From: Patescibacteria group bacterium
Lineage (GTDB): Bacteria; Patescibacteriota; Microgenomatia; 2-02-FULL-39-11
Assembly: GCA_023379265.1 (NCBI GenBank)
Contig: JAMCUI010000010.1
Span: 200 to 64,199, forward strand
Direction of reading: 5' to 3'
Length of the DNA stretch: 64,000 bases
The translations under genes and the position numbers were made by a program. Shown in pieces: positions 6,372-34,935 of this stretch. The notes under the pieces are model-generated. The model was not told the origin of the DNA. It made no database searches and saw only the letters and a list, made by a program, of their open reading frames with translations. Numbering within the stretch: the first letter of the stretch is position 1; the number at the start of each line of letters is the position of its first letter.

Positions 6372-8225
6372 GTGAATAGAAGAAGATATTTAAGCGTATT
6401 TTCTTTTCTTTTCCTGTTTTGTATTCTTTATCAGGGATTGTTTCTTGCGCCTTTCAAAAACACTGTTTTTGCAGCAGATACCTTAGATTTAAACTCAACT
6501 TCTGGAACAAACCAGATTATAGTAGTCTTTAATTCCTCTCCGACATCTACTACTCTAATGAATTTTGTGATGAATAATAATCAGCTACAGCCTAAATACG
6601 GGTTGACCGCCTCAAATTCTATGGTTTTTGGGCTTTCTACAGGAACTGTTTCAGCTCAGCTTTTGACAACAATCCGTCAGCAGTCGAACGTGAAGGCTGT
6701 ATTTCCCAATTACCATATGACACTCATGGGTACTCCAAATGATACGTATGTTGGTCAGCAGTGGAACTTGCAATCGTTGAAACTGGTAGGGAGCGCTCAA
6801 AGTGCTTGGGATGTGACTCATGGTTCCTCATCTATAGTGGTCGGAGTAATTGATTCAGGTATAGACTCGGCAAATCCCGATCTTGCAGGAAAGATTGATT
6901 CCATGGCTGATTGCAGTACAGGGACGTGTACAACTGTTTCTTCAATGACAGATAGTCTGACAGAACCTCATGGCACACATGTATCAGGACTTATAGGTGC
7001 AGTCACGAATAATGGACAGGGGATCGCAAGTTCAGGTTTCGACACTAAAGTAATGATGGTAAAAGTGGCGGATGCCGGAGGACAAATAATGATTTCAAAC
7101 GTAATAAACGGTATTAAATGGGCGGCTGACCATGGGGCTAAAGTGATAAATATGAGTTTGGGACAATTGGCTGACAATCTGGACGCAAATGCAATTTCCC
7201 AGATAAACGATGCTGTTTCATATGCGTGGGGAAAAGGGATCGTGCTTGTGGCCTCAGCCGGTAACTGCGGTGGAAATACCAACGGTGATAATTCGTGTGC
7301 TTTGACCGATGCGCAGGGAAATCCGACCGGGCAGTTTTTAATAAACAAAAAGGTATATCCGGCTGCTTCTCCCAACGTTATTTCCGTTGCTGCCATAACC
7401 CGTGACGGGACGTTGGCTCCTTATTCTGAACACAATGATGCAACTGATTCTTCTATAGGTAACTGGATAGATGTGGTTGCACCAGGCGGCCTCTGCAGCA
7501 GTCAGAATGATGCTCAGAACTGTATTCTGTCCACATTTTATTCCACACAGGGAGACTATGGGTATATGGCGGGGACTTCTATGGCCTCTCCGCAGGTTGC
7601 AGGTATTGCTGCCTTACTTTTTGCCGTTAACCCTCACCTGACCAATGCTCAAATAAAAGGAATGATTGAATCAACAGCTGATAAAAGCATTGCGTCAGGA
7701 GCATCTGTCAATGGAGAACCAAACGCTTTATCTGCAGTAAATGCGGCCTCAGCAGCAGTGACTCCTGGTGCTCCAACGGTAACACCGGGAGGAGACACTC
7801 CGACCCCCAGCCTGACAAATGCAGCAGATACTCCTACACCGACTCCGGTTGTTCCCAATGTAACACCTTCAGTTACTCCAACTCCAAGTCCCTCTCCTTA
7901 TCCGACCGTGCCGCCGAAGCTGCCGCATACTTACCCTTCCCCGATGCCCTCCGGACCATATTGTCCGGCGATCACCAACTGTTCCCATAAAGAAGTCGGT
8001 GACGCCAATTGTGACGGGGTAGTAGATGAAAGCGATTTTAAGCTGTGGTGGGAAGAGTTTGACACGATACCTCCGGCATCCCCAGCTAACCAGAATGCAA
8101 ATTTTGCCTGTGTTGAAGGAAACAAAAGTTCATATTTTGCCGATCTGGTCAGTTTTGAGATTTGGAGAAGAAATTCTATAAGCGGTTTGATGTCTACAGC
8201 GCCTGGTAACAACTCGAACCAATAA
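6372..8225 (+). CDS. Secreted subtilisin-like serine protease (peptidase S8) with Pro/Thr-rich linker and C-terminal dockerin-like Ca-binding module
   Basis: Signal peptide present. Catalytic triad motifs are VIDSGID (Asp), HGTHVSG (His) and GTSMASPQVAG (Ser). The linker is TPTPTPVVPNVTPSVTPTPSPSP. The C-terminal GDANCDGVVDESDF matches the dockerin DxNxDGxxDxxD pattern. Confidence 0.85.
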   Translation: MNRRRYLSVFSFLFLFCILYQGLFLAPFKNTVFAADTLDLNSTSGTNQIIVVFNSSPTSTTLMNFVMNNNQLQPKYGLTASNSMVFGLSTGTVSAQLLTTIRQQSNVKAVFPNYHMTLMGTPNDTYVGQQWNLQSLKLVGSAQSAWDVTHGSSSIVVGVIDSGIDSANPDLAGKIDSMADCSTGTCTTVSSMTDSLTEPHGTHVSGLIGAVTNNGQGIASSGFDTKVMMVKVADAGGQIMISNVINGIKWAADHGAKVINMSLGQLADNLDANAISQINDAVSYAWGKGIVLVASAGNCGGNTNGDNSCALTDAQGNPTGQFLINKKVYPAASPNVISVAAITRDGTLAPYSEHNDATDSSIGNWIDVVAPGGLCSSQNDAQNCILSTFYSTQGDYGYMAGTSMASPQVAGIAALLFAVNPHLTNAQIKGMIESTADKSIASGASVNGEPNALSAVNAASAAVTPGAPTVTPGGDTPTPSLTNAADTPTPTPVVPNVTPSVTPTPSPSPYPTVPPKLPHTYPSPMPSGPYCPAITNCSHKEVGDANCDGVVDESDFKLWWEEFDTIPPASPANQNANFACVEGNKSSYFADLVSFEIWRRNSISGLMSTAPGNNSNQ

Positions 8226-11081: not shown

Positions 11082-11087
11082 TTTTAT

Positions 11088-15753: not shown

Positions 15754-15761
15754 GGGTATGT

Positions 15762-19015: not shown

Positions 19016-19059
19016 TAATCATTTTTAAATTTCTAAATTCCATTTTAATAGCATAAAAA

Positions 19060-19827: not shown

Positions 19828-20092
19828 AAAAGCAAGATAATCTTGAAATTCGTAATTAATTTCCCGGAAAAATCAACTAAAGATATATTAAAAAAAATTT
19901 TGGCTTGACCTCCTTAAATTATTGAATTTATGCAATAAATTTATTTTTTTAGGTTTAATGGTATAAATATGTTGGTATAAACGATGGTTTATTTCCTTGT
20001 AATCCACTAATACCTCTGTTAAATTCTCATCATATGAAAACATTAGCCAAAAACATGCGATTCTGCCTATCCTGTAGTGGAAAAATGATTAA

Positions 20093-21654: not shown

Positions 21655-23101
21655 CAGTTTTTAAAAAATTCAATACACCTTGGTCAAAGTGAAATATTTT
21701 TTGGCAGAATACATAAAAATTATTACTTGGTGGCTTCGATAATAAATATAATAATAGTCGTCGATGAATACCCTTTATTCCAGAACCCTTGTTCCTGCTC
21801 AATTCTACAAGTTGCATAAAGTTTCGATAATAATATAATATGTCTTTCCTCGGAAACTCCGGAATATTTAGAATCGTGTCAAATCTCTCTCTGAAGTTTT
21901 TCCTTTGTTTTCCAATAATTTTTCTTTTCTTGCAAATCTGCCATAGTTTTGTTTTTGGATAAGGATAAAAAATATTTAGAAAATGTTGGTTTGGATTAAT
22001 ATGGGCAAACAATTTTACCGTTTGTAAAAAAATTTCTGGTGTTTCGTCAGGAAATCCCATCATGATGAATGCTAATGTTTGGAGATTAAATTTCTTAGCT
22101 AATCTAAAGGCATTTATAATTGATTCATTGCTCATTCTACGGTCTAAGAGATGTTTTCTTAGATATTCATCACCGCATTCAACTCCTATAAATACTGCTC
22201 GACAGCCAGCATTTTTAAGTTTTGACATTATTATTCCGTCAACCGTGTCTGCCCTAATATTGCAAATAAAAGGTAAATTTATTTTCTGATAGTATTCTAG
22301 AAAGGTGTTCAACCATATTCTGTTTAGAGTAAAAGTATCATCATGGAAAAGAAGGAAATCAGCGCCATATTTTTTCACGGCTAACTCAATCTCTTTTATA
22401 GCCCTTTTAGGGCTCTTAAATCTTACATAAAGAGAATTATTGAAATTATTGTAAAATTTTTTTAAAGCATGATTGGAACAATAAGTACAATTAAAAGGAC
22501 ATCCACGAGAAAGAATAAACTCTAGCCCTTTTTCCTCATTGAGTCCATATGGAAGACTGTTTAACCATAAATGGCCGTTTCTCACGAATAAATCTCTATC
22601 CGGAAACGGTAAACTGTCTAAGTTTTTGATTATTTCTCTATTTGAATTCTTAATAATTTTTCTACCTTTTCTTAGCCAAAGACCTTTTATGGAATAATAA
22701 TTTTTCCCCTTTTGTAGTTTATCCGCCAATTCAGCTAATGCATATTCTCCCTCGCCTAAACAAATTGCATCTAGAGAGTAAGCGTGAGAGAATTCTTCAG
22801 GAGCTAACGTTGTATGTACTCCGCCGCAAATAGTAAAAATATGAGGGAATTTTTTTTTAATTAACCGGGAGATTTTTTTTATTTCATGAAAAATTGCAGT
22901 TACTGCTGAAAATGCAATGATATCAGGATGAAACTTAAGAATTTCCGTTTCTATCTGTGAGTAACTCTCAGTATTAAAATAATAGATTAAACAGGTTTGA
23001 TGACCTCTCTTTTTTAATACGGCTGATATAGATGCTATACCCTCTAAATATGACAACGAACCTTGCCCTCTAATGAAACCATGTATAAAAAGTACCTTCA
23101 T
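21644..23101 (-). CDS. B12-binding-domain radical SAM enzyme (class B-like)
   Basis: N-terminal Rossmann-like B12-binding region, then the CPFNCTYCSNH radical-SAM CxxxCxxC motif. 485 aa. Confidence 0.8.
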   Translation of the reverse strand: MKVLFIHGFIRGQGSLSYLEGIASISAVLKKRGHQTCLIYYFNTESYSQIETEILKFHPDIIAFSAVTAIFHEIKKISRLIKKKFPHIFTICGGVHTTLAPEEFSHAYSLDAICLGEGEYALAELADKLQKGKNYYSIKGLWLRKGRKIIKNSNREIIKNLDSLPFPDRDLFVRNGHLWLNSLPYGLNEEKGLEFILSRGCPFNCTYCSNHALKKFYNNFNNSLYVRFKSPKRAIKEIELAVKKYGADFLLFHDDTFTLNRIWLNTFLEYYQKINLPFICNIRADTVDGIIMSKLKNAGCRAVFIGVECGDEYLRKHLLDRRMSNESIINAFRLAKKFNLQTLAFIMMGFPDETPEIFLQTVKLFAHINPNQHFLNIFYPYPKTKLWQICKKRKIIGKQRKNFRERFDTILNIPEFPRKDILYYYRNFMQLVELSRNKGSGIKGIHRRLLLYLLSKPPSNNFYVFCQKIFHFDQGVLNFLKTVVN

Positions 23102-23111
23102 AAATTTTAAG

Positions 23112-24353
23112 TTAATGATTAAGAAAATGAATTTTTGCTCGAAGAATATTTTTCTTTCCAGAGTTAAATAATATATTTTCTGATTTAAAATTTAATCCGT
23201 AGACTTCAGATAACCATTTGAATTTATAAGATTTGTTTTCAACGACGATTGCGCAGGTCAAACTATTATCATTAGTTATTATTTGCAGGTTTTGGTTATT
23301 TTTAATCTTATTAATAAATTGATATTTATATTTCAAATTTTCGTATATTTTTCTTTTAAATCCATTTTTCCCCCATAGATTGATAATTGCCCAACATGCG
23401 ACTGGTGCAATACCACTTCTACTACCTAAGAGTGTGTTATCTTTTTCTTCCAAATAGGTAATAGGTTTTTCTATTAACTGTCTCAGCTCTTTTCTGTATA
23501 GAATTATTCCTGCAGGTAGTGGGGTAAAACCGAATTTATGAAAGTCCGTTAAAAAAGTTTGTATTTCACAAAAAGAAAATGGCTTAAATTCATTATTTAA
23601 AAAAGGTTCTATAAGTCCATTAAGTGCAGCATCAAACCAGATAAAAAATTCAACCCTGTGTTTCTTTTTTATTTTTTCTATCGACCGGCTGATTTTTTTA
23701 ATTGGATCATTTGTTCCTGTAACTGTATAACCCAGAGTAAGAGGGACCAGAAAACCCTTTTTGCCTTTTTTTATTGAGTTTTCTACTTCTTTCTCAAAAC
23801 CCCAAGCGTCCATATTCCAGGTTTTATCATTAAGCGGCACAATAAAAGTTGGTACACCAACAATATCGGCTGCTTTCTCAATTGAATAATGGGTTAGACT
23901 TGTTTTTATAAGACATATTTTGTCTCTTTCTATTCCTCTCTTTTCTATATATTTAATTCCTAGCCAAGCTGAAAAAATGTTAGCTTCCGTTCCACCAGTT
24001 GTAACGTAACCCTCAAGTTCATTTTTATTCCCATGGTAGAGATCAATCATCTGTAAAATTAAGTCTCTTTCGACTTTGGCAGTTTCGTGATTGGGCTCCA
24101 AATTTTTTATTGACCAATTGCCTAAATTGTTGGGATTATATGGCAGTAGCATTTTCCAGGCGTTAGCAGCTACTTTCTCAGGATAAGTTACGAGATGACC
24201 ATATCCTGTGTACTTTTTCTGGTTTTTCACTTTATTTAATATACCCCATAGTCCAGCTTTAATCTTAATTTTTGATACTGGTCTGTCTGGAAATTTATTA
24301 TTCCTTTTTGGATATAGAATATTATTTTTAATATAGGTTTTAATAGCGAACAT
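23112..24353 (-). CDS. Group II pyridoxal-phosphate-dependent decarboxylase-like protein
   Basis: TTGGTEANIFSAW matches the group II decarboxylase motif (cf. MfnA TSGGTEANL). DFHKFGF carries the PLP lysine. 413 aa. Confidence 0.6.
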   Translation of the reverse strand: MFAIKTYIKNNILYPKRNNKFPDRPVSKIKIKAGLWGILNKVKNQKKYTGYGHLVTYPEKVAANAWKMLLPYNPNNLGNWSIKNLEPNHETAKVERDLILQMIDLYHGNKNELEGYVTTGGTEANIFSAWLGIKYIEKRGIERDKICLIKTSLTHYSIEKAADIVGVPTFIVPLNDKTWNMDAWGFEKEVENSIKKGKKGFLVPLTLGYTVTGTNDPIKKISRSIEKIKKKHRVEFFIWFDAALNGLIEPFLNNEFKPFSFCEIQTFLTDFHKFGFTPLPAGIILYRKELRQLIEKPITYLEEKDNTLLGSRSGIAPVACWAIINLWGKNGFKRKIYENLKYKYQFINKIKNNQNLQIITNDNSLTCAIVVENKSYKFKWLSEVYGLNFKSENILFNSGKKNILRAKIHFLNH

Positions 24354-24358
24354 AAAAT

Positions 24359-25090
24359 TTACTTTTGAATTATACCCAATCCTGAATCTTTAGGAAAAGG
24401 GAAAATAAAAGTGTGTTTATACTCAATTTCTCTCCAAAATCTCCAAATGCCGAAAAGCCCTTTATCCAGATACCCGCGAGCTACAACGTCATGGAAAGCC
24501 ATAAACCCACCTTTATCCAGTCTTGGCCAGAATAAACTGTAATCCCTTTTTACCCCCTCATATGAATGGTCTCCGTCTATATATATGTATTGGTATTTAT
24601 GTTTATATCTTTTAGCAAATTCTGATGTTGTCATTACGTGTGTGGTTAAATTTTTTTTTACGTCAAGAAAAGAAAAATGCTTATTCGGGTTCACTTCTTT
24701 CCACCAGCCGATACCGCTCCAATTGTTTGGGTCATCCGGTCCAAATCCCGCGTCGACAAAATCAACATCACCAAAACCGTTTTCCTGGCAGGCTAAAGCG
24801 CAAATGGCTGGAATAAAACCTTTTCTTGATCCCACACAAAGTACTCTTTTGGGTTTTAAGTTTAATATTAATGAGTAGTGAATAAATCCATAGCCTAAGT
24901 TGCCAGTGGTAAGATTTGTCTGGTGTCCCTTGTCACCGTTATAATATTTGGCTAGTTGTCTGGTGACAGATCGGTTAAATATGATGGACCTGTTTTGACC
25001 GAAGAGGTTTTTGCTAACAGAGTTTGTGGAAAGAAAGAATCCTACTTTGTCTCTAAGGTGCGAATTAATATTTAGACCGAAGAGTTTCAT
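24359..25090 (-). CDS. Class I SAM-dependent (sugar) O-methyltransferase, TylF/MycF-like
   Basis: LCVGSRKGF (glycine-rich SAM site), DFVDAGF and YIYIDGDHSYEGV, typical of the TylF/Methyltransf_24 family. 243 aa. Confidence 0.55.
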   Translation of the reverse strand: MKLFGLNINSHLRDKVGFFLSTNSVSKNLFGQNRSIIFNRSVTRQLAKYYNGDKGHQTNLTTGNLGYGFIHYSLILNLKPKRVLCVGSRKGFIPAICALACQENGFGDVDFVDAGFGPDDPNNWSGIGWWKEVNPNKHFSFLDVKKNLTTHVMTTSEFAKRYKHKYQYIYIDGDHSYEGVKRDYSLFWPRLDKGGFMAFHDVVARGYLDKGLFGIWRFWREIEYKHTFIFPFPKDSGLGIIQK

Positions 25091-25097
25091 AATTTCT

Positions 25098-26084
25098 TTA
25101 GCGGAAAAGTTTAACCCAAATTTTCATGGCAGTTCTAAGGTCCTTAAAATAATCATCTTTCGGAAATTTTACTTTTTCTACCAACTCTTCATAACAATCT
25201 ACTAAAGCGGTAGATTTAAGTATCAGATGTGCCAATTGAGAGTTGAGAAATTCATTTGTTTCTATACCTTTGGCCTCTTTTTTTAAGTTCTGGAAAACAT
25301 CTGAAGCTTTTTTGTGATCAACAAATGGAGAACCATTTACTACGGCCATTCCCAAGTGGTCGATGATTTTTTTGGCAAACATCCCGGCCCAGATATCGTC
25401 AAACCTGTCGTATCCCCAATGGTTTCCTAGAGGGTCGTATCCCATAAGCGGAAAGTACATAAGGGGAGTAATTTTTGACTTGAAAGCCAAATTCATCGAA
25501 CACATAGGGAAAAGATAGCCTTTAGGAACAAATTCGATAAAAGGGAAACTGTCAGGTATAGAGAGATCTTGATGCAATAATTGCGTTGGAGCGTCAAAAT
25601 CAAGGATATTTTTCCATAGGCCATGGCTTACGACGACTTCCCTTTTACCTCTTATGGCATAGGGGATACCACGAGTATAGTAATATTGTCTGTGCGGATA
25701 GGTGGGATGCCAGCCGTCGGGTGCAGAAAGTGAAAGGTTTTCCACATGCTCATTTATGAAATTTTGTCCGGTGACAGGGTAACAATCGTCGTCAAGAGTG
25801 ATGACAATATCCGCTTTTAACTGAAAAGCTTTCAGAAATCCAAATGAGCGTATACCGGCGTTTTTCCGGGATATTATCCATGAGTTTTTACCCAATTCAT
25901 TGTCTATATCCTGCCAAGTGTAGTGATAGACTTTCTGAAAATATTTTTTAGGTGTGTTTATCTCTTTTGACTTATGGTCTTCGATGATAAAACCTGCACA
26001 ATTGTAAAAGTGGTTTTTCCAATATTTGAGGAAATCCAGGTTTCTGATTGTGGGAATGACAATGGCTATTTTTTTCTGTCGCAT
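25098..26084 (-). CDS. GT75 / reversibly-glycosylated-polypeptide (UDP-arabinopyranose mutase)-like protein
   Basis: The N-terminal [22 protein letters not shown] closely matches the plant RGP signature [20 protein letters not shown]. Followed by [12 protein letters not shown]. 328 aa. Confidence 0.5.
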   Translation of the reverse strand: [328 protein letters not shown]

Positions 26085-26199
26085 AAAATCGCTTCATTAT
26101 AATCAATAAAAATATCAAATACAATTATGGTTGAACGGATGAATATTTATATTCAAATTCTATCTTGACAAGAGTGGTAGGTATGTTATTCTGGATTTA

Positions 26200-26916
26200 A
26201 TGGTAGGGAATCAAAATAAACATTTGGGTGTTGCTCTGGGCTTTTTTGTGGTCATGGGTGTACTATTGGGTATAGCTGTAATCGGCGCTGAAACATACAA
26301 TAATTACCGTTCCAAAGCTTACGCCCCTCCTCCCAATCCCATACCCAATTGTACCAGTCTCACAGGTCCTTCTTCAGTTACCGTAGGTCAAAGCGCCACG
26401 TATACCGCAAGCTTTTCTTCGGAACAGGGGAATCTTGGCGGGGAAATTGATGCTGGACAAGGCGGGGCGTTTAAGTGGACACCTGGGAATAAACCAATTT
26501 CCGGAACTTCCGGATCTTTGTCGTTTACCTGGACTCCTACTGTAGTCGGAACATACGATGTGTTCTGTCGTTCATGGAATGATGCAGTTGCCGAATGCCG
26601 TGGCAAAGCAAATTACGTGGATGGGCCACCAAGATACGCTTGTGCAGGACCAACTAGCTCAATGTCTGTCACTGTTGTGGCGGCAGTGACGCCGACGGTA
26701 ACTCAGGCAGCCTGTAACAATAAGACTAAAGGTGATGCCAATTGTGACGGAACAACCGATCTTATCGATTACTCCATCTGGCTTAACCACCAGTGTAACA
26801 AGCAAGCCGCAGGTACAGCTTGTACTGATCTGCGGGCAGATTTTAATGGAGACGGCAGCGTAGATGATGCAGATTTACAAGTGTGGAAAAATAATTACTT
26901 AAGCGATACGCATTGA
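26200..26916 (+). CDS. Secreted Cys-rich protein with a C-terminal double dockerin-like module
   Basis: Signal anchor present, 8 Cys. The C-terminal GDANCDGTTDLIDYSIWLNH and ADFNGDGSVDDADLQVWKNNY form two DxNxDGxxD segments. Confidence 0.55.
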   Translation: MVGNQNKHLGVALGFFVVMGVLLGIAVIGAETYNNYRSKAYAPPPNPIPNCTSLTGPSSVTVGQSATYTASFSSEQGNLGGEIDAGQGGAFKWTPGNKPISGTSGSLSFTWTPTVVGTYDVFCRSWNDAVAECRGKANYVDGPPRYACAGPTSSMSVTVVAAVTPTVTQAACNNKTKGDANCDGTTDLIDYSIWLNHQCNKQAAGTACTDLRADFNGDGSVDDADLQVWKNNYLSDTH

Positions 26917-26928
26917 TACTCGTGAATA

Positions 26929-27975
26929 ATGAGTCCAAAAATACAACTAACCAAAAACCAGACGTTTTCTCTTGTTTTTCTGGCGGTACTTTTCTTTTCC
27001 TTATTTGTAGGACTTATACTGGTACAACAAAGGCAAGAGATTAGGCCAAAGGCCAGTTCCACATCTGTAGTGCTATCCCTTTTACCGGCCACACAGAATT
27101 TTAATCTAAACGATACCAATACTTTTGACCTGGTTGCGACTTTTACGGGAGGTTCGTCTACGGAAAAAATTGACGGTATTCAAACCGAAGTGGATTTTTC
27201 TTCCCAATATTTAAACATACCGGCAAATCACTATATTATAACAGCTCAATCTGGTCTTTCCGTTCTTAGAGTTGATGGACCTACTATCAGTAATCAAAAT
27301 AATAAAGCCCTCATACGGTTGGTTGCAACAACCCCCGGCAGCGGACCTTCAACAGATAAACCAATCGTTGTCGCGAAGATTGATTTTCAAGGTATTGCGG
27401 CTACCCCAAGACCGCAAATCATATCCCTTGGTACCTCCCAAATAGTAAACAACCTGTCTGTGGCAATACCAGTCACATTGGTAGGCGCAGGATATACGGT
27501 CGGGCAAGGCAATATTACAATAACTCCACCGGGGCCAACCATTCGTCCGGTTATACCAGGTCAGGCTGATTTTCTTTTACAGACAGATTCAAACAGCACC
27601 TCTGTAGGTCAGACTTTTACGGTAAATGTCTCGATGAAACTTACAGATTCAAGCGCAAGAGCATCCGGAGTGGATTTTATACTGCTTTATGATAAGAAAA
27701 TTCTAGATGTGGTAAATACTGTTCCGAATATTACTACAGTTAACTCTCAGGCGCCTTTCACAGATGGCCAAGTTGCATCGGGAGGTTCATTCAACGACCA
27801 ATATAATTTTGTTAGAGTAACTCTATTGTCCAAAAAGCAAACAACAGATCTTCCGTCAGGTACAATCAATCTGGCAAAAGTGACATTTAAGGGCAGCAGT
27901 GTAGGCACCGCTACCATAAAATTCCCTGATGATAATAGTCTGCTACAGGTGTCGGGAATTGCGGTAAGTAATTGA
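26929..27975 (+). CDS. Membrane-anchored protein with two cohesin-like beta-sandwich domains
   Basis: N-terminal TM. Domain 1 contains FDLVATFTGGSSTEKIDGIQTEVDF...ASTPGSGPSTDKPIVVAKIDF. Domain 2 contains VGQTFTVNVSMKLTDSSARASGVDFILLYDKKILDV. It is paralogous to the next three genes. Confidence 0.5.
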   Translation: MSPKIQLTKNQTFSLVFLAVLFFSLFVGLILVQQRQEIRPKASSTSVVLSLLPATQNFNLNDTNTFDLVATFTGGSSTEKIDGIQTEVDFSSQYLNIPANHYIITAQSGLSVLRVDGPTISNQNNKALIRLVATTPGSGPSTDKPIVVAKIDFQGIAATPRPQIISLGTSQIVNNLSVAIPVTLVGAGYTVGQGNITITPPGPTIRPVIPGQADFLLQTDSNSTSVGQTFTVNVSMKLTDSSARASGVDFILLYDKKILDVVNTVPNITTVNSQAPFTDGQVASGGSFNDQYNFVRVTLLSKKQTTDLPSGTINLAKVTFKGSSVGTATIKFPDDNSLLQVSGIAVSN

Positions 27976-28063
27976 GAATTAAAGTTCAAAGTTTGCGGAA
28001 TATAAAATAAATTTAGCGAGGATAAAAAATCCGACAAATAAAAATTATACTGGTTCAGTCAAG

Positions 28064-30010
28064 ATGAGAAATATTTCGGGAGGAAAAGGTAAATCTATAT
28101 TTATACTTTTGCTGCTTCTGGTGGCGCTTTTCGTCGCCGTGGTTTTGGTGCGGCAAAATCAGGAATTAAGGAATAGGGCTGCGGGACTTAGCGTGACTTT
28201 AAGCTTGAATCCGTCTACAGATAATTTGAGTACGAGCAAACCAAAAGAATTTGATATAATCGCTACTTTCCAGAACGGGTCTTCAGGTGAAAAGTTGGAT
28301 GGAATAAGAACAGTCTTAAACTTTCCGGCGGCAAATATCTTCATTCCAGACAGCCCTCTTATAGACACATCGACTTCTGGCCTAAGTCCTTATAAGGTTG
28401 ATAGTCCTGCTGTAGCCAACCAGGCAGGGAAAATGAATATTACATTGATTGCTTCCACTCCGGGTAGCGGTCCGTCTACGGATAAACCTGTTATCATTGC
28501 CAAAGTTTTTCTTCAGGGTAAGGCTCCTATAACTTCAACTTCCGTAACATTTTCAGATACACAAATAGTAAATAACCAATCAGCACAAGTACCTGTCCAA
28601 CTAGAGAGTGCCAATTTGGGAGTGGTAATGGATAACGGAACAAGCTGTCTGACTTATCCGGTGACTGATACCTTCAGCGAATCAAGCTTGAATACGGATT
28701 TGTGGCAAGAATGGAAACAAAACGGCAGTGATTCTCTGACCTCTGGAAGTTTGCGTCTTATGGCAAACGGTGGCGGGTCTTCTGAGTCATATGGAGGTGT
28801 ATTGTCAGCAAAAACTTTGTGTGCAACGACTGGTGATTTTGACACTTCAGTTGACTTCAACCAGTTTACTACAAGCGGTCAATCGGAGGCTGATGCTATT
28901 TTATCTCTTGAGGACCAGACAAACGATTCTCATATATTTATTCAATATGCCAATAAAGGTAACAGTGCTGGTTTTGAAAGTAAACTGGTCATAAAGGGTC
29001 AGGACCAGACTGTGCAGGATAAGTGGACACCCATGTCCGTGACTACTGGAAAACTTCGGATAGTGAGGCAAGGAGGGGTCTTTACTACATATTATGATAC
29101 AGGAAGCGGTTGGATACAGCAGGCTTCATTTATACCCGATTCTTTTGCTACAGCTTTGAATGTGGGATTATTTGCTAAAAGCTGGGGAGAGTATCCTACA
29201 GTCTCCGCCAATTTCGACAACTTTTCTTTTTCCCAAGCCAATCCCGCCCCTTCGTTTACTCCCACTCCGAGCCTGACACCTGTGCCAACCTTGACTCTTA
29301 TACCGACTCCTCCTTTAGGATCCAACCAATACCTTATAAATATAGGAGATAAACAATGGCTTACGATAAATGTGGGTGCTTCGGTGACTCCTCAGATAAG
29401 GTTTAAGGCAAAAGTGGCTTTTCTCCAGAATACACCGGATTTATACTTCAAGCTGAGAGTGAAGGATGAGTTGGCCTTTATGAATAATCCAACTGATCAG
29501 GGAACAACTGATTCATGCAATAATACTCCCGCCGGGGACTACGATTTTTGGGTACCGATGCGGGCGCAAAATGGGATTTATTCTCCAGTACCTTCTATAG
29601 GGACGCCTCCCTCTGGGATGAATATAGCTACAGTTTCGCCTGATGGATGGGTAATCCTTAATAATGTTCAGGCGGGGAAGTATTACTCAATTTTCTTGAA
29701 AGCCCCCAAAACCAGAGGGACACTCATGGTGCAGCATGTACTGCTTGCACCCAACCAGGACCAAAACATACAGGATTTTGACTGGACGACAAATGCATTG
29801 GCACCGGGAGATTTGCCTGACCCCAATAACGGCGGCAAACAGGACTGTACCGTCAATAGTGTGGACCTGTCGCTTATAGAACAGAGGCAAGGAAAGACTG
29901 ACCAGGATAGTCTGAATATAGCCGATGTGAATTATGACGGGGTGGTAAACGGAAATGACATTTCAAAAGTTGTCAATACGCTTTCGACAAAACCTGATGA
30001 CGATAAGTAA
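28064..30010 (+). CDS. Membrane-anchored adaptor protein: cohesin-like domain, ConA/LamG-like lectin domain, PT-linker, beta domain and C-terminal dockerin-like module
   Basis: N-terminus paralogous to 26929 (FDIIATFQNGSSGEKLDGIRTVLNF...ASTPGSGPSTDKPVIIAKV). The middle region is LamG-like. The linker is PAPSFTPTPSLTPVPTLTLIPTPP. The C-terminus is ADVNYDGVVNGNDISKV. Confidence 0.5.
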   Translation: MRNISGGKGKSIFILLLLLVALFVAVVLVRQNQELRNRAAGLSVTLSLNPSTDNLSTSKPKEFDIIATFQNGSSGEKLDGIRTVLNFPAANIFIPDSPLIDTSTSGLSPYKVDSPAVANQAGKMNITLIASTPGSGPSTDKPVIIAKVFLQGKAPITSTSVTFSDTQIVNNQSAQVPVQLESANLGVVMDNGTSCLTYPVTDTFSESSLNTDLWQEWKQNGSDSLTSGSLRLMANGGGSSESYGGVLSAKTLCATTGDFDTSVDFNQFTTSGQSEADAILSLEDQTNDSHIFIQYANKGNSAGFESKLVIKGQDQTVQDKWTPMSVTTGKLRIVRQGGVFTTYYDTGSGWIQQASFIPDSFATALNVGLFAKSWGEYPTVSANFDNFSFSQANPAPSFTPTPSLTPVPTLTLIPTPPLGSNQYLINIGDKQWLTINVGASVTPQIRFKAKVAFLQNTPDLYFKLRVKDELAFMNNPTDQGTTDSCNNTPAGDYDFWVPMRAQNGIYSPVPSIGTPPSGMNIATVSPDGWVILNNVQAGKYYSIFLKAPKTRGTLMVQHVLLAPNQDQNIQDFDWTTNALAPGDLPDPNNGGKQDCTVNSVDLSLIEQRQGKTDQDSLNIADVNYDGVVNGNDISKVVNTLSTKPDDDK

Positions 30011-30070
30011 ATTAATGCAGCGAAAAGTTCTTAGAGTTCGTAAAGTTATTAAAGTTAATTTAGTCTATAT

Positions 30071-30676
30071 ATGAACCAACAGGGATCTTCTGATTACAGG
30101 AAAATTTTAGTGGTTGTCTTGGTGCTTGTGATTCTTTTGGGTGCCATAGTTGTCATAAGGGCCCAGAGGAATGCGGCTTTACAAAAAAGCATGGAAGTCC
30201 AAAAAGTTGCACCAACTATTATCTTATCTCCAACAAGTTTGCCTTTGGTAGGAGAGTATTCCTTCTCGGGAGTACCTGTCAGCGTAAAAGTAGGACAGAC
30301 TTTTAACGTAAGCATCGATTTTAAGGCGCCAAAAACGGTATTGGATGGGGCTGATGCTTATGTAAGATTTAATCCGACCTATTTGAAAGCAGATAGCGTC
30401 ACTGAAGGTCCTTATTTTTCCGAGTATCTGAGGAAAACCATAGATAACGAGGAGGGTATGGTAAAAGTGACTGGTTTTAGGTCAAAAACGGGTGATACTC
30501 TTGATAAAAACGTCACTTTCTTTACCCTCTCCCTGACAGCCCAAAAAAGCGGATTGACAAATCTGACTTTTGATTTCCAGAAGGGAAGGACCAACCTTTC
30601 AACATTGGTAGAAAAGGGAACAAGTAGAAACGTATTGGGTACAACTGGTAAAGCAGTCATTACAATAGCTCAATAA
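30071..30676 (+). CDS. Membrane-anchored single cohesin-like domain protein
   Basis: N-terminal TM, then VKVGQTFNVSIDFKAPKTVLDGADAYVRFNPTYLKADSV...VTFFTLSLTAQKSGLTNLTFDF. 201 aa. Confidence 0.5.
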   Translation: MNQQGSSDYRKILVVVLVLVILLGAIVVIRAQRNAALQKSMEVQKVAPTIILSPTSLPLVGEYSFSGVPVSVKVGQTFNVSIDFKAPKTVLDGADAYVRFNPTYLKADSVTEGPYFSEYLRKTIDNEEGMVKVTGFRSKTGDTLDKNVTFFTLSLTAQKSGLTNLTFDFQKGRTNLSTLVEKGTSRNVLGTTGKAVITIAQ

Positions 30677-30678
30677 TT

Positions 30679-31419
30679 ATGAAGAGGAAGCTTATTTTCA
30701 CTTTTTCGCTGGTAGCGTTCCTTTTTTGTATCAAAGGTGTCAAGGCAGAGGAAGTTCATGCACAGGTTTTTAAGATGCAGCTTGCCAACCCTTCACAAAC
30801 GATCAATGTAGGGGATAATTTTGATATACAGATTATGATAAATACCGCCGGTCAGTCTACCATAAACGGAGACGCGCTTATTACATACGATCCCAATGCG
30901 ATTACTATTGATTCAAGTAATGTCAAGACGGGCAATTTCTATACCTATTTCAGCGCCAATCCTTTAGGTGGATACAATAATAAATTTCTTATCTCCAGTT
31001 GGGAGGAAAGTGTTGCTCACGCAAAATCTACTTCTACAGACGCTCTTTTTGCAACCATGACTGTAGCAGCCAAAAATCCTGGTACAACTACACTGTCTTT
31101 TGACTGTACTACCGGAAATGAAGCTGACTCCAATATCAATTTGGCATCCGATTCATCCGACATCATAAAGTGTCCTCTGCAGCCTTTGACAATAAATATA
31201 GGTGGGGCGGCTCAGCCGACTGCCGCGCCAACCTCAGCCGCTCCAACTTCAGCTCCAACTACTGCGCCAGCAGCAACAAGTACGCCAATTCCCTTGCCAA
31301 CCAAAGCTCCTAGGCCAACTGTGGCAGAGTTAAAAAGAGCAGGAGGAGCAGAAATGACAATTTTAGGATTGGGAGTAGGATTTATACTGACCGTAGTGGG
31401 CGTGGTTTTTGCTTTATAA
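30679..31419 (+). CDS. Cohesin-like domain protein with an Ala/Pro/Thr linker and a C-terminal membrane anchor
   Basis: Signal peptide. INVGDNFDIQIMINTAGQSTINGDALITYDPNAITID is cohesin-like. Followed by AAPTSAAPTSAPTTAPAATSTP and a C-terminal TM (ILGLGVGFILTVVGVVFAL). Confidence 0.5.
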   Translation: MKRKLIFTFSLVAFLFCIKGVKAEEVHAQVFKMQLANPSQTINVGDNFDIQIMINTAGQSTINGDALITYDPNAITIDSSNVKTGNFYTYFSANPLGGYNNKFLISSWEESVAHAKSTSTDALFATMTVAAKNPGTTTLSFDCTTGNEADSNINLASDSSDIIKCPLQPLTINIGGAAQPTAAPTSAAPTSAPTTAPAATSTPIPLPTKAPRPTVAELKRAGGAEMTILGLGVGFILTVVGVVFAL

Positions 31420-31470
31420 ATTGTTGAAGATTAATTTTACACTGATAGTATTGAGTTTTGAGATAACATT

Positions 31471-32181
31471 ATGCATCTGACATCTTTCAAAAAATCGCTC
31501 AAAATTGTAGGAATAATCACGGTTTTGGCTGCAGCTCTTGGCGCAACCATAATAGGCGGAAGTCGCGCAGCACAGCAATTTGCCAAAGCCTCTACATGTC
31601 CGGCACAAAAGATTGCCTCTGCTCAAGTGGGAGCCAATAGCGCAGTTGTCGCCTGGGAGACTACTGATGTCAGTCAGGGAAGAGTGGAATATGGAACTGC
31701 TCCAACTAGCCTAAATTTTACCGCACCGGAGGCAACGAGCGGTAAGATACACAATGTGCCTCTGACGCTTTTGACGCCAAATACTGTCTATTATTATCTA
31801 GTGGCCATAGGGGACAATAAATGTGATTCTTCAGGACAGACTTGTACGGATAATTGTGTGCCTTACAGTTTTACCACCGGTGCTATATCGCCTCAGCCGG
31901 AACTGGTCACAACCACTACTCCCACGCCTCCGGTTTCTCCAACTTTAATACCTCCTGTTGGTACGCCAACCGGTGTAGCTACCCCGTCATCCATGATTTC
32001 ACCATCTAGCAGTGTCAGTCCGACAGGAGGACTTAGCAGTTTTTGCGCTCTGGTACAGGCAAATATCGGCCGCAGCAGTAAAGAGACTTCAGTCTGGAGT
32101 ACATTCAAACAGTACGATATTGATGGAAACGGTATAATAAACGGTTTAGACGTCATCAAATGCCAGCAGAGCGGAAAATAA
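31471..32181 (+). CDS. Membrane-anchored FN3/purple-acid-phosphatase-N-like domain protein with a C-terminal dockerin-like segment
   Basis: N-terminal TM. The FN3-like region is VVAWETTDVSQGRVEYGTAP...NTVYYYLV. PT-linker present. The C-terminus is YDIDGNGIINGLDVIKC. Confidence 0.45.
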   Translation: MHLTSFKKSLKIVGIITVLAAALGATIIGGSRAAQQFAKASTCPAQKIASAQVGANSAVVAWETTDVSQGRVEYGTAPTSLNFTAPEATSGKIHNVPLTLLTPNTVYYYLVAIGDNKCDSSGQTCTDNCVPYSFTTGAISPQPELVTTTTPTPPVSPTLIPPVGTPTGVATPSSMISPSSSVSPTGGLSSFCALVQANIGRSSKETSVWSTFKQYDIDGNGIINGLDVIKCQQSGK

Positions 32182-32187: not shown

Positions 32188-34935
32188 TTAACTTAGGGCT
32201 GCTATATCATTTTGGCTGAATGTTTGGAGTGCTACACGCTTATATAGATCGTCGCTAACCACTTTTCCTCTGGGATTTAGAAGAAGGATAAAAGAATTCC
32301 TGCCGCTTGCCGGTCTTACTTTGATTAACCTTCCCCGAAAATATAGAGGATCCTGGACCATTTTCCAGGCATAATAATCAAGGTCTCCGAACTGTATTTC
32401 CTCCAAAGGGCTAGCTACAAAAATATTACCGTCGATATTGACTTCAACATTAGGAGCTTGACGAATCATTTTTTCTCTTATCGTTTTTCTATCTTGAGAA
32501 GAAAGTCTATGGGTTTCGGATCTTTTGTTCCGACTGACTGCCACCTTTTCATAAAATTTAAGCGAAGCCAGTCGTACGGATGCAGCGCTTCTGCCTCTTT
32601 TAGCTTTTTTTTGGATGCCCGCTACCGGTTTTCTTCTTTCTTTTATATATACCTGATTAAGTCTACTTTCAGAAATTTCCTGCATTCTTTTTTCTATGGC
32701 AAGTATAGCTTTTTCCTGCCATTCCTTGAGACTACGATCAAAAAGAAATCCGCCGATAGCTCCACCTGCAGGTGGTTCTGTCCAGACTATAATGTATCTG
32801 GCAAATTCGTCTTCGATTCCGGGACTGCTTGGATCAAGAGTGAGGAACTTTCGGAGTCTTTGCAAAGGATGTTTATCTCTGTCGGTAGTGAAGATATAAA
32901 CGGGTTTGCCGTCAACTGTAAGATCAAGTTTGATTTTTTTCATTACAGCTTCAGGTTTACTGCCGATTGGAGGATTGTCCACGGGATAAAGATTTAATTT
33001 AGGATTGTTAGTATCCCACTCTGTTATTTCATAATAATAATCTTTACCCTTTATTCCTTCCTCGTCTTCACTGCGCATACTTTCAATAATCTTGTCCAGT
33101 TCATCGGTATGAGTCTTCATCTTCAAAAACCACTCCTTGTTTGAGTCGAAAAGATCCATCATAAGGAGTAGTTTGGCCCGGCTGGTCCAAGGCAATTCTT
33201 GTGATTGTTTGCTAGCAGAGATATTCTTCCTGAAAGGGTTTGGCTCGCCTGATGGTAGAAGGCTGCGGTTGGGATGCATGTTGTGCATGAGAAGTATAAG
33301 GTCAAGGAGTCGGGTGGTTTTTACTTCGTCTGAAAGATTGAATCTGGTAGCTTCGCCGCGACTTCCAGTAAAAAATGACAGCGCCTCTTCCTCGATTTCT
33401 CTCATAAAAGTGTTAATATCAAAAGACAGCCGGCTGAATATATCTTCAGTAATTCCCATAACCAATTGGAAATTCTGTTGAAGACGCTGTCGTATTTCTT
33501 CCAGCTCTAAAGTTTCTTTCCCGTCAAGGCTTTCGGTATTGGCTCTTAATCTGCGCGTGTGTTCAAGCGCCTGGATAAGTTTTATGCCAAAATTTTCTTC
33601 AGTGGGATTAATGTTAAAAGTTCTGAATAATACTTCATAGATTTGTATGAGATGATGATTTAGTCTTCCTGTTTCACCAGTATCGACTCCTTCGGATTTG
33701 ACGTGCCTACTTATAAGTTCCTGCCACTCCTGTGGTCCTAAAATACCCAATGCTGGTATGAAATCTGCAGTCATATAAGGTTCCTGCGGACCGGCCTCAG
33801 CAACTGCAGACACGTCTGAGCGGATTGCCATCCGTTGCATTGATTTTGCCATTTCCCAGTCCAGATAGTATCTTCTTGTAAGTTCGAGATGGTTGTCTGT
33901 ACGTGTTTTACTTAATCTTTGGTGGGCTACATTTGTGTCATAATCCACCATTTTGGCCAACAATTCTTTACTTTTGTCGTGTTCTTGTGGCTCAAAATTC
34001 TTTTGGAAAGTTGCTAGCATTTGCTGGTAGGTAAGTGAATCGTCATCAGGGAATGTATAGCTACGAGAAAGTGGATTGAATTTCCCTATCATGGCAGCTA
34101 CATGTTCTGGATTTTCCAAATCAAGTTTCCGGAGAAATTCAAGCCGTTCTCTTTTCCACCGGCTTGATTTTTTCCTGCCATATTTCGGGTGGTCAGAGTT
34201 TGTCAGAAGATCAATTAATATATCCCGGCGTACCTGAGCCTCATATTTTTCGGCCTGTTTTATAACTGCTAAATTATAGTTATCCATCATCTGCTGGTTG
34301 GCAACAACACCGGCTCTTTGGCGAGCTGCACCTGGTCGCATCGAATCGACAATTGTAATTATTCTTTGAGCTCCTTTTTTATCACTGACGGTTACCGTGC
34401 CTCTTTCTAAAAGGTATCTGACTTGTAAGGGGGATAGAGCCACAGTATCATCTATCTTATCTTGTGGGTTGATTGAAAGAGGTTTAAAAGATGCCGGCAA
34501 CTCGGTAATAGTCAGCGATTCCCTGTGTGTTTGTCTGCCATTACCATGGTTAAAAGAATATTCACGCTGGTTTTGTATAATTCTGATATCATTAGGCGTT
34601 ATAGTATAGTCATGTAATTTCTCGCATACTGATATTGCTGCAGTTTCCAATAAATCATCTCTAGAAAATTCATAGGGTTTCGGCAGGTGTTTTCCCGGGA
34701 GCATCGTCTGTCCTTGCTCTTCGGATGAAATACTTTTTATAACCCAGTAAGATTTTGTCAGCCAAGTCTGGGAAGGATTGGGAGGGTTTGCTTTTTGACT
34801 TAATACATCTGACCAATTGAAGCTAAGTTGGCCTCTAAGTTCATTTGGTGAAATTTGCTGCAATGGCATTACCCGAACCACATTTTCTGCAGGCGGTTCG
34901 TGTTCGGCAGGTAACATTTCTCTAGCTTGAGCCAT
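32188..34935 (-). CDS. Large (915 aa) uncharacterised soluble protein, divergently transcribed from the Rel/SpoT-like gene
   Basis: Long uninterrupted ORF with GC-richer codon usage than the glycan island. A strong SD (AGGGAGG) sits 10 nt before the ATG. No recognised catalytic motifs. Confidence 0.55.
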   Translation of the reverse strand: MAQAREMLPAEHEPPAENVVRVMPLQQISPNELRGQLSFNWSDVLSQKANPPNPSQTWLTKSYWVIKSISSEEQGQTMLPGKHLPKPYEFSRDDLLETAAISVCEKLHDYTITPNDIRIIQNQREYSFNHGNGRQTHRESLTITELPASFKPLSINPQDKIDDTVALSPLQVRYLLERGTVTVSDKKGAQRIITIVDSMRPGAARQRAGVVANQQMMDNYNLAVIKQAEKYEAQVRRDILIDLLTNSDHPKYGRKKSSRWKRERLEFLRKLDLENPEHVAAMIGKFNPLSRSYTFPDDDSLTYQQMLATFQKNFEPQEHDKSKELLAKMVDYDTNVAHQRLSKTRTDNHLELTRRYYLDWEMAKSMQRMAIRSDVSAVAEAGPQEPYMTADFIPALGILGPQEWQELISRHVKSEGVDTGETGRLNHHLIQIYEVLFRTFNINPTEENFGIKLIQALEHTRRLRANTESLDGKETLELEEIRQRLQQNFQLVMGITEDIFSRLSFDINTFMREIEEEALSFFTGSRGEATRFNLSDEVKTTRLLDLILLMHNMHPNRSLLPSGEPNPFRKNISASKQSQELPWTSRAKLLLMMDLFDSNKEWFLKMKTHTDELDKIIESMRSEDEEGIKGKDYYYEITEWDTNNPKLNLYPVDNPPIGSKPEAVMKKIKLDLTVDGKPVYIFTTDRDKHPLQRLRKFLTLDPSSPGIEDEFARYIIVWTEPPAGGAIGGFLFDRSLKEWQEKAILAIEKRMQEISESRLNQVYIKERRKPVAGIQKKAKRGRSAASVRLASLKFYEKVAVSRNKRSETHRLSSQDRKTIREKMIRQAPNVEVNIDGNIFVASPLEEIQFGDLDYYAWKMVQDPLYFRGRLIKVRPASGRNSFILLLNPRGKVVSDDLYKRVALQTFSQNDIAALS

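Follow-up and report, generated by a model that had tools for sequence, protein, structure and literature searches.

A candidate non-cellulolytic cohesin-dockerin surface assembly encoded by a conserved operon of a Patescibacteria lineage

The 64-kb stretch of Patescibacteria (CPR) DNA analysed here (the window) contains at 26200-32181 six co-directional open reading frames on the plus strand, p1 to p6, with five cohesin modules and three dockerin-type tails. This raises the question of whether their products assemble on the cell surface and what such an assembly would display. An earlier note on this DNA had inferred a modular proteolytic or adhesive surface complex, and the claim is largely supported: the ORFs lie where it placed them, its quoted peptide motifs are found in the sequence, and the anchors, the p3 adaptor, the dockerin tails, and the link to an S8 subtilase are all seen. 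The profile searches, structure prediction, and gene-order comparison that it had proposed as checks agree with it as well, although the Pfam profiles by themselves recover only some of the modules. The reading favored here, with a probability of about 0.7, is a self-contained non-cellulolytic cohesin-dockerin surface assembly, encoded by a conserved operon of a CPR lineage and displaying a protease and lectins (features in Table 1).

Table 1. Position of the operon genes, the S8 gene, and their modules in the window (nt, window positions; aa, positions in the protein).
Feature	Position	Strand	Basis or content
S8 subtilase	6372..8225	+	Peptidase_S8 E 2.3e-49; DSG, HGTH, GTSMA triad motifs
S8 dockerin tail, diverged	7980..8177	+	BLASTP to p1 dockerin E 2e-8
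Candidate sigma-70-like promoter, best match, directly 5' of p1	26165..26192	+	consensus match only
p1	26200..26916	+	N-terminal TM-length segment, Ig-like Cys-rich domain (weak Big_3_5 match), two-repeat dockerin
p1 dockerin	aa 177-231, nt 26728-26892	+	Dockerin_1
p2, membrane-anchored two-cohesin scaffold	26929..27975	+	Pfam Cohesin, cohA HMM, AF2 model
p2 A-type cohesin (p2-N)	aa 41-193, nt 27049-27507	+	cohA HMM match
p2 B-type cohesin (p2-C)	aa 211-348, nt 27559-27972	+	Pfam Cohesin
p3, adaptor	28064..30010	+	TM segment, A-type cohesin, ConA-like domain, X module, dockerin
p3 A-type cohesin	aa 38-190, nt 28175-28633	+	predicted fold
p3 ConA-like domain	aa 192-338, nt 28637-29077	+	DUF1583_C 25.6 bits
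p3 X module, conserved	nt 29318-29800	+	
p3 dockerin, terminal PDDD	nt 29801-30007	+	Dockerin_1
p4, membrane-anchored single cohesin	30071..30676	+	Pfam Cohesin
p4 C-type cohesin	aa 60-201, nt 30248-30673	+	Pfam Cohesin
p5	30679..31419	+	signal peptide, D-type cohesin, Pro/Thr/Ala linker, C-terminal LKRAG + hydrophobic helix
p5 D-type cohesin	aa 28-175, nt 30760-31203	+	orthologue Cohesin matches
p5 LKRAG motif + hydrophobic helix	nt 31330-31416	+	
p6	31471..32181	+	TM-length segment, FN3-like domain, linker, single-loop mini-dockerin
p6 FN3-like domain	nt 31588-31875	+	Pur_ac_phosph_N E 6.8e-10
p6 mini-dockerin, two conserved Cys	nt 32026-32178	+	EF-hand_6, Dockerin_1 weak

The six genes are separated by gaps of 12, 88, 60, 2, and 51 nt (from p1 to p6), and minus-strand genes bracket the cluster at either side. 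The candidate promoter (TTGACA-16-TATTCT, with TG) agrees with the consensus at 10/12 positions.

According to the domain assignments, p2 has two cohesins and p3, p4, and p5 have one each, and these modules belong to four sequence types. The gathering score of Pfam Cohesin (PF00963, 24.1 bits) is exceeded by p2-C (31.8 bits) and p4 (33.7 bits). As for p5, the window protein stays under this threshold (18.8-21.3 bits), and 8 of its 16 orthologues match the model, the best at 9e-10. A Pfam search of the A-type domains of p2 and p3 with E up to 10 returns no match, their hhalign probability against the other cohesins is 3%, and within the A-type family only 2 of 69 proteins match Pfam Cohesin. 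According to the structural models, however, the A-type domain is a cohesin fold that Pfam misses. The p3 domain is modeled with pLDDT 94.6 and every one of its top 42 Foldseek matches in PDB is a cohesin (E down to 1.8e-8, TM 0.46-0.79), with Clostridium perfringens 2jh2 and 2vo8 as the best matches of the A type and Archaeoglobus fulgidus 2xdh also strong. For the whole-p2 AF2 model (pLDDT 74.7) cohesins are among the top PDB matches (TMt 0.65-0.75), and the fold matched is thus that of solved cohesins, a nine-stranded beta-sandwich (jelly-roll). Since the p3 domain is predicted to fold as a cohesin, p3 carries both module types, as the earlier note had proposed for an adaptor. The note had also described paralogous N-terminal cohesins on four genes. 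Cohesins are indeed present on all four, but p2 has a second, C-terminal one (Pfam match at aa 219-333), in which the quoted VGQTFTVNVSMKL motif sits. Close paralogy is limited to p2-N and p3-N (44-45% identity); p2-C, p4, and p5 share 18-24%. Among 1.84 billion representatives, the A-type family accounts for about 90 clusters with E < 1e-10. Of the 69 proteins, 20 also have a dockerin recognized by Pfam, and P0022 is a fusion of S8 and cohesin.

Regarding dockerins, a search of all 64 kb in six frames for a stringent F-hand pattern (D.[ND].[DN]G..[DNSTE]..[DE]) gives 5 occurrences, compared with 0.01-0.02 expected by chance, and every occurrence is C-terminal (p1 twice, p3, p6, and S8). The dockerin-like ends claimed for these four proteins are thus present as F-hands, but p6 has one loop only and the second loop of S8 is degenerate. 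Pfam Dockerin_1 (PF00404, gathering score 22.9 bits) recognizes p1 (25.9 bits), which has two canonical Ca-loops, and p3 (26.9 bits), in which the second loop is canonical and the first repeat retains TVNSVDLSLI; its first loop is read from the sequence as containing an inserted stretch of about 8 residues. Together with the X module, this dockerin is the best-conserved part of p3. In the S8 tail the first Ca-loop is intact (GDANCDGVVDESD) and the second repeat is remodeled (NANFACVEGN...FEIWRRN). The tail has no Pfam match of its own in the window protein, shares 32% identity over 81 aa with the p1 dockerin (BLASTP E 2e-8), and aligns to canonical two-repeat dockerins of orthologous S8 proteases elsewhere. 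The dockerin relationship of the tail is supported, but the protease does not quite end in it, about 15 further residues being present. Among the 14 members of the S8/p1 tail family, 8 match Dockerin_1 (best 9.3e-8), and the family profile matches PDB dockerins. As for p6, its tail scanned alone gives EF-hand_6 at E 0.003 and Dockerin_1 at E 0.12, below the Pfam threshold, and its consensus FC..V..NIG...YDIDGNGIINGLD.IKC is kept in about 20 loci.

All four cohesin proteins had been described as TM-anchored. They do appear to be envelope-anchored, with N-terminal hydrophobic runs of 21 aa in p2 and 18 aa in p4 (22 aa in the dockerin protein p1), but in p5 the anchor is C-terminal and the signal peptide looks cleavable. 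Both S8 and p5 have hydrophobic regions of 14-15 aa followed by AxA-like sites; in S8 a region of 15 aa precedes VFA-A, a signal peptide of the cleavable type, and the subtilase is likely a secreted enzyme cargo. In p1, p3, and p6 the hydrophobic segment at the N-terminus (19-22 aa) has no obvious cleavage site, and these proteins may be tethered to the membrane instead of being free cargo. The C-terminal motif of p5, [LM]P[RN][ASTV]G ahead of a hydrophobic helix, is found in 20/23 complete orthologue tails; it reads LKRAG, not LPxxG, in the window and in two related loci (L001 and L002). The p5 proteins end at the helix, without a positively charged tail, and a sortase signature (TLxTC) was seen neither in the 64-kb window nor in the fetched loci.

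The gene order S8cat-doc, cohB, X-doc, cohC, cohD, FN3-doc is the same in about 25 distinct metagenomic or MAG loci. The comparison covered MAG loci L002-L009 and 24 metagenome loci, and the order holds wherever the locus is long enough; the only relative with a name is a Candidatus Gottesmanbacteria MAG. Cohesin and dockerin carriers stay in one operon down to about 40-50% identity, and p4 is present in 26 related loci. The p1 gene is accessory, occurring only in loci with the A-type cohesin (cohA), namely the window, L002, L010, and L020. Two loci (L003 and L006) have three cohesin types and three dockerin carriers each, the window and L007 have one more of both, and the number of cohesin types tracks that of dockerin carriers across loci. 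In the conserved order p3 is the lectin-X-dockerin gene, and the variable modules seen among orthologues are the lectin-like ConA/LamG, PA14, and CBM96 (in one orthologous locus) as well as DUF1554.

The S8 gene lies directly upstream of the cohesin genes in every other locus extending far enough. This adjacency is lost only in the lineage of the window, where a low-GC glycan-synthesis block of ~18 kb separates the two. In this genome the 18-kb distance weakens the case for co-regulation of the S8 gene with the operon, which counts against the favored reading.

Co-variation of the partners was measured by a partial Mantel test on distance matrices with multiple-test correction. The p3 dockerin and the p5 cohesin (docP3-cohD) have a partial r of 0.69 (p 0.0002, n=19), followed by the S8 tail and the second cohesin of p2 (docS8-cohB) with 0.62 (p 0.0016, n=9). 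None of the remaining cohesin-dockerin pairs survives the correction, and the p6 tail co-varies with no cohesin. For the controls within one polypeptide (X-docP3 and S8cat-docS8) the values are about 0.07-0.08, and thus docP3 co-varies more with cohD than with its own X module. As for docS8-cohB, block inheritance could explain the signal in the 9 loci, since the modules are neighbors on the DNA; another source may be one division of the tails into canonical and remodeled forms.

Taken as a binding system, the operon would likely serve as a surface protease and lectin display complex, a role predicted from sequence. Ca-dependent cohesin-dockerin binding would tether the protease and lectin-like proteins to the surface in a small hierarchy. 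In it p5, anchored C-terminally in the cell wall or membrane, would hold p3 by its X-dockerin, the S8 protease would sit on the second cohesin of p2, and p1 would sit on the A-type cohesins of p2 and p3; p4 would pair with the p6 mini-dockerin, a partner assigned by elimination only. The complex would bind substrate or host-cell glycans via the ConA-like and other lectin modules, and the subtilase would degrade proteins there. This would fit an organism dependent on scavenging, although the biological target is a guess.

The modules could also be non-binding homologues, with the cohesins serving as generic Ig-like stalks or wall spacers, the tails as Ca-binding stabilizers or binders of another ligand such as cell-wall glycan, and the operon merely grouping co-regulated surface proteins and a protease. 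Two of the four tails, those of S8 and p6, are degenerate or reduced to half and are not recognized by Pfam Dockerin_1, the p6 tail lacks co-variation, and most dockerin-bearing proteins have a TM-length segment of their own; dockerins without cohesins were reportedly noted in many genomes by Peer et al. in 2009. Mere co-regulation, however, poorly explains why both kinds of carriers stay together in about 25 loci down to about 40-50% identity, why their numbers track each other, why docP3 follows cohD more closely than its own X module, and why cohesin-dockerin fusions are frequent in the A-type family. This explanation is unlikely, though it is the most probable of the alternatives. Ranked after it, and also improbable, is binding in trans, in which membrane-tethered p1, p3, and p6 would dock onto cohesins of a neighboring cell of the same species or of a host; the system would then serve chiefly for adhesion between cells rather than for displaying enzymes. 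The hydrophobic segments of these proteins, with no obvious cleavage site, are consistent with it, as are the proposal that non-cellulosomal dockerins are adhesins of other ultra-small bacteria (PMC10066038) and the essentiality of the dockerin protein SEML1_0315 in an epibiotic Saccharibacterium (PMC10633639). In contrast, only one carrier, the S8 enzyme, has a signal peptide that is clearly cleavable, which fits the display of secreted cargo, and all partners come from one operon. These observations are compatible with binding in cis as well as in trans.

A true cellulosome degrading plant polysaccharide is very hard to reconcile with the cargo. Cohesin and dockerin proteins of a Cand. Shapirobacterales (Microgenomates) MAG, expressed in a groundwater metaproteome, were read in this way by Bell et al. 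(bioRxiv 10.1101/2021.08.21.457207), a GH10-like protein (4030-5796) adjoins the S8 gene, and CBM96 appears in one orthologous locus. However, the GH10-like protein has no dockerin pattern, nor does any other glycoside hydrolase in the 64 kb, and the operon genes scanned in the window and related loci include no glycoside hydrolase. The earlier statement that cellulases are absent is thus better read as no dockerin-bearing glycoside hydrolase. Across all fetched loci only three further ORFs bear the F-hand pattern, all within or adjoining the operon, and the two scanned against Pfam have no match. The tails belong to the subtilase, the lectin-type adaptor p3, the Ig-like p1, and the FN3 protein p6. 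A multi-cohesin scaffoldin with a CBM is also missing from the window: p2 has two cohesins and no CBM3-type or other CBM, and it is p3, the adaptor with the dockerin, that bears the lectin-like modules instead of the scaffold.

Compared with known systems, the display assembly favored here resembles the cellulosome anchoring of Ruminococcus flavefaciens, in which the sortase-anchored cohesin ScaE binds the X-dockerins of ScaB and CttA. Like ScaE, p5 is an anchored single cohesin, with an LPXTG-like C-terminal signal in its orthologues; p3 combines a conserved X module and dockerin on a cohesin-carrying adaptor; and the co-variation of the p3 X-dockerin with the p5 cohesin points to the same kind of pairing. 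The one-loop tail of p6 recalls the naturally truncated group-2 dockerins, which are functional with a single loop and have the cell-anchoring ScaE cohesin as their partner (PMC12270676). In contrast to R. flavefaciens, the operon has no glycoside hydrolase cargo, its enzyme being a subtilase, its cohesins number only 4-5 and are all in one operon, its anchors are mostly N-terminal TM helices, and p5 has an LPRAG-type motif (LKRAG in the window) with no sortase seen nearby. Cohesins and dockerins outside cellulose degradation are likewise found in the toxin/glycosidase complexes of C. perfringens, in A. fulgidus, and in the Ruminococcus bromii amylosome. Those systems, however, tether glycosidases or amylases or have unknown partners, whereas here an S8 protease is conserved and all partners are in one CPR operon. 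In PDB, the S8/p1 dockerin profile has its best sequence match in 8x39/8x3a (E 6e-9), a tandem dockerin labeled 'Serine protease' and presumably from cellulosomal clostridia. It indicates that a protease is able to carry dockerins, but it has two tandem canonical dockerins, whereas the S8 tail of the window has one intact loop. The Cand. Shapirobacterales and SEML1_0315 reports concern the same superphylum and annotate single domains. The module types are known, but neither the operon and its layout nor the protease link, the Pfam-missed A-type family, or the predicted pairing is described in the literature searched.

CPR bacteria are thought to live attached to other cells, and to our knowledge their surface machinery is almost unknown outside Saccharibacteria. 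The operon is a compact, conserved, and fully encoded candidate for such machinery, with specific partner predictions. A more tentative and rather doubtful extension is a lineage-specific 'proteo-adhesome' of uncultured Microgenomates-type CPR: a minimal hierarchical complex with three or four orthogonal pairs that would attach to the surface glycans of a host or prey and digest the proteins there. Among its parts would be a Pfam-invisible cohesin family, a mini-dockerin with one loop and a disulfide clasp, and a cohesin anchored in the wall that holds an X-dockerin. The last of these would follow the logic of ScaE but have arisen in a distant phylum. Current sequence models miss the whole A-type cohesin family. 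Protein engineering could draw on the cohesin-dockerin pairs of the operon, which are small, divergent, and possibly orthogonal and include a single-loop tail of ~45 residues. The operon also corrects a likely misreading, in which cohesins and dockerins of CPR are taken for cellulose degradation, as the conserved enzyme here is a protease.

The six co-directional ORFs described in the earlier note (p1 to p6) are all present on the forward strand at exactly the positions collected in the table, so that its observation is confirmed, with corrections in detail. The intergenic gaps from p1 to p6 are 12, 88, 60, 2, and 51 nt, respectively, minus-strand genes lie on either flank, and no convincing internal terminator was found in the cluster. 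The top promoter-like site of the region is located immediately 5' of p1. Across all six reading frames of the 64 kb the strict F-hand pattern has 5 matches, compared with a chance level of 0.01–0.02 (simulated sequences and residue-shuffled ORFs). All 5 are C-terminal: two in p1 and one each in p3, p6, and the S8 protease. As for the 3' side, the operon is followed by an ORF of 915 aa without Pfam matches, which is syntenic in the related loci L002 (912 aa) and L007 (882 aa), and then by two paralogous HD_4 (RelA/SpoT-type HD) genes.

Positions of the operon genes, the S8 gene, and other features of the window
Feature	Position	Strand	Description
Membrane-anchored protein gene	4030-5796	-	just upstream of S8 gene
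Second feature upstream of S8	5826-6082	-	just upstream of S8 gene
S8	6372-8225		subtilase gene
Glycan block	8313-26084		glycan-biosynthesis genes
RGP-like gene	25098-26084	-	PF03214 match
Promoter-like site	26165-26192		5' of p1
p1	26200-26916	+	ORF
p2	26929-27975	+	ORF
Post-helix motif, p2	27020-27055		after N-terminal helix
p3	28064-30010	+	ORF
Post-helix motif, p3	28148-28183		after N-terminal helix
p4	30071-30676	+	ORF
p5	30679-31419	+	ORF
p6	31471-32181	+	ORF
915-aa gene	32188-34935	-	ORF 3' of operon
HD_4 gene 1	35211-37526		paralogous pair
HD_4 gene 2	38083-40140		paralogous pair

The cohesins claimed for p2 to p5 are recognized by different kinds of evidence. According to Pfam, the domains of p2 (residues 219–333, type B) and p4 (type C) exceed the gathering score with 31.8 and 33.7 bits, respectively. 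The p5 domain (type D) stays below the threshold of 24.1 bits in the window (18.8–21.3), while 8 of 16 orthologues match Cohesin (best E-value 9.4e-10); the p5 family profile finds nothing among PDB sequences. In p2 as well as p3, the A-type domain comprises the 150 residues after the TM helix (44–45% mutual identity). It has no Pfam match even at E-values up to 10, its family profile has no match among PDB sequences, and hhalign against other cohesins gives a probability of 3%; NCBIfam also reports nothing for the p1–p6 proteins. Since sequence methods failed, its identity was resolved by structure prediction only. For the model built on a 15-sequence alignment (pLDDT 94.6), the first 42 matches in Foldseek PDB are all cohesins (best E-value 1.8e-8, TM up to 0.79), including C. 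perfringens 2jh2 and 2vo8, C. acetobutylicum CohA2, C. thermocellum OlpC, and A. fulgidus 2xdh. Hence p2, which was modelled as well, is a membrane-anchored scaffold with two cohesins. A scan of 1.84 billion representatives yields 69 A-type cohesin proteins, 20 of them also with a Pfam dockerin. One of the 69, P0022 (792 aa, JGI name "thermitase"), is an S8 protease fused directly to a C-terminal A-type cohesin (residues 640–788), the reverse of the S8-dockerin arrangement in the window. P0004 (555 aa) is a p2 homologue with A-type and B-type cohesins, whose C-terminal domain has a precomputed match to PF13403, which we take to be a Hint-type autoprocessing domain.

Among the claimed dockerin tails, those of p1 and p3 are supported by Dockerin_1 above the gathering score (25.9 and 26.9 bits, respectively). 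In p3 the dockerin is preceded by the A-type cohesin, a ConA-like domain (DUF1583_C, 25.6 bits), and a conserved module X of ~165 residues with no Pfam or PDB sequence match. The S8 protease is recognized by Peptidase_S8 (E-value 2.3e-49) and has the DSG, HGTH, and GTSMA triad motifs. Its tail alone has no Pfam match. This tail shares 32% identity with the p1 dockerin across 81 residues (E-value 2e-8), with a canonical first loop and a remodelled second one, and the S8 tails of loci L018, L024, and L026 are canonical two-repeat dockerins. Since the S8/p1 tail family matches Dockerin_1 in 8 of 14 tails and its profile matches solved dockerins (best 8x39, "Serine protease" tandem dockerin), the S8 tail of the window is, judging by sequence, a diverged dockerin. 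As for p6, an FN3-like protein (Pur_ac_phosph_N, E-value 6.8e-10), the claimed dockerin is reduced to one Ca-loop between two conserved cysteines. Functional single-loop dockerins of R. flavefaciens bind the cell-anchoring ScaE cohesin (PMC12270676).

Homologues are few: searches of 5.8 billion sequences returned 7 and 11, and the X-dockerin profile had 15 matches in a large protein search. In NCBI the window proteins are named "Patescibacteria group bacterium", and one relative is Candidatus Gottesmanbacteria. Contigs around the homologues and 24 metagenome loci obtained with the p3 C-terminal profile were annotated with module HMMs built for this analysis. L008 and L009 come from Hainich groundwater samples. 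In every locus long enough to reveal it, the module order is identical: S8 catalytic domain with dockerin tail, B cohesin, variable genes, X-dockerin, C cohesin, D cohesin, and FN3 with mini-dockerin. The gene of the B-type cohesin directly follows S8 in L003/4/5, L006, L007/9, L014, L018, L024, L026, L029, and L030; the only exceptions are the window and two close copies of it, L001 and L002, which lack S8 at this position. In the window the S8 gene and the operon are separated by a glycan-biosynthesis block of ~18 kb with a GC content of 27–37%, clearly below that of these two flanks (42–45%). Among its products are a sugar transferase (Bac_transf)-Wzy fusion, GT4 enzymes, an O-antigen-ligase-like protein, an ABC-2 exporter, a methyltransferase, a PLP decarboxylase, and an RGP-like protein. 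Because it occupies the exact spot where other loci have S8 beside the cohesin genes, the block appears to have been inserted into the operon and to have split it. For the RGP-like gene the match to the "reversibly glycosylated polypeptide" family is strong and full-length (PF03214, E-value 4e-56); this is mainly a plant family and unusual in bacteria. In three distant loci a Cys-rich secreted protein is encoded just 5' of S8 (L003 3416–4141, L006 5256–6269, and L007 367–1437), one of the three having a weak TSP_1 match; the S8 gene of the window has no such neighbour. The record of L002 (CAZFNL010000090.1) is titled "uncultured Gammaproteobacteria bacterium", which might suggest a wider distribution. 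Its p3 orthologue, however, is 91% identical to that of the window and its gene order is the same, so this reading was rejected as a binning error and L002 is probably mis-binned.

Module counts and co-variation suggest which cohesin holds which dockerin. L003 and L006 contain three types of cohesin and as many dockerin carriers, both counts being higher by one in the window and in L007, and A-type cohesins are confined to loci with a p1-type dockerin protein. According to partial Mantel tests on pairwise distance matrices, with the mean of all other modules as the control, the p3 dockerin co-varies with the D cohesin (r 0.69, p 0.0002, n = 19 non-redundant loci) and the S8 dockerin with the B cohesin (r 0.62, p 0.0016, n = 9 loci), with the same-chain controls (X with the p3 dockerin, S8 catalytic domain with its tail) at ~0.07–0.08. 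The remaining cohesin-dockerin pairs are lost after multiple-test correction. The S8-B signal is the weaker of the two because of the few loci, DNA adjacency, and the possibility that the tails divided just once into canonical and remodelled forms, which may itself be the source of the signal. Mirror-tree analysis gives no partner signal for the p6 tail and the p4 cohesin, and hence p4 and p6 are paired by elimination only.

Regarding topology, the hydrophobic region is 14–15 residues long in S8 and p5 and precedes VFA|A and VKA|E, respectively, which fits cleavable signal peptides. The hydrophobic runs of p1, p2, p3, p4, and p6 (18–22 residues) fit membrane anchors or long Gram-positive-type signals. 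The C-termini of p5 orthologues show [LM]P[RN][ASTV]G (LPRAG 11, LPRSG 3, LPNVG 2, MPRAG 2, LPRTG 1, MPRSG 1; LKRAG in the window, L001, and L002) and then a hydrophobic helix. This resembles an LPXTG-type sorting signal, but without the charged tail, and a search for the TLxTC signature revealed no convincing sortase in the window or the fetched loci. Directly after the N-terminal helix of p2 and p3, and nowhere else in the 64 kb, lies the motif ...L(V/T/S)xQ(R/K/N)Q(E/D)(I/L)Rx(K/R)A. It occupies the same position in P0002–P0018 and L003–L026, with Q36, I38, R39, and A42 invariant in the alignment, and might function as a processing or sorting signal specific to the lineage.

The system is similar in logic to a cellulosome, which was considered and rejected, since the defining CAZyme cargo is absent: the window and the fetched loci have no dockerin-bearing glycoside hydrolase, and the operon genes scanned in related loci include no glycoside hydrolase. 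A looser dockerin pattern adds just three ORFs across all loci, each within or beside the operon, and the variable modules of the orthologues are ConA/LamG, PA14, CBM96, and DUF1554. The earlier statement that cellulases are missing holds for dockerin-bearing enzymes, but a membrane-anchored protein without dockerin upstream of S8, adjoining tRNA-Tyr and tRNA-Thr, has a partial Glyco_hydro_10 match (E-value 1e-7). Cohesin and dockerin modules have reportedly been known outside cellulosomes since Peer et al. 2009 (cited in PMC10066038). Within the CPR, expressed cohesin and dockerin proteins of a Microgenomates MAG were interpreted as a cellulosome (bioRxiv 10.1101/2021.08.21.457207), and one of the essential proteins of a Saccharibacterium is a dockerin protein (PMC10633639). 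In the literature searched, with most subscription journals outside it, we found no published description of the operon, the protease link, or the A-type cohesin family.

The proteolytic or adhesive surface assembly proposed in the earlier note is supported within the limits of computation. What was observed are the domains, their conservation, and their co-variation; binding, stoichiometry, action in cis or trans, and the biological target are inferences. The envelope-anchored cohesins of p2, p4, and p5 would hold dockerin-tagged proteins: p5 the X-dockerin of the lectin adaptor p3, and p2 the secreted S8 subtilase, with p1 held by the A-type cohesins of p2 and p3. Such a complex would bring a protease and glycan-binding modules together at the cell surface.
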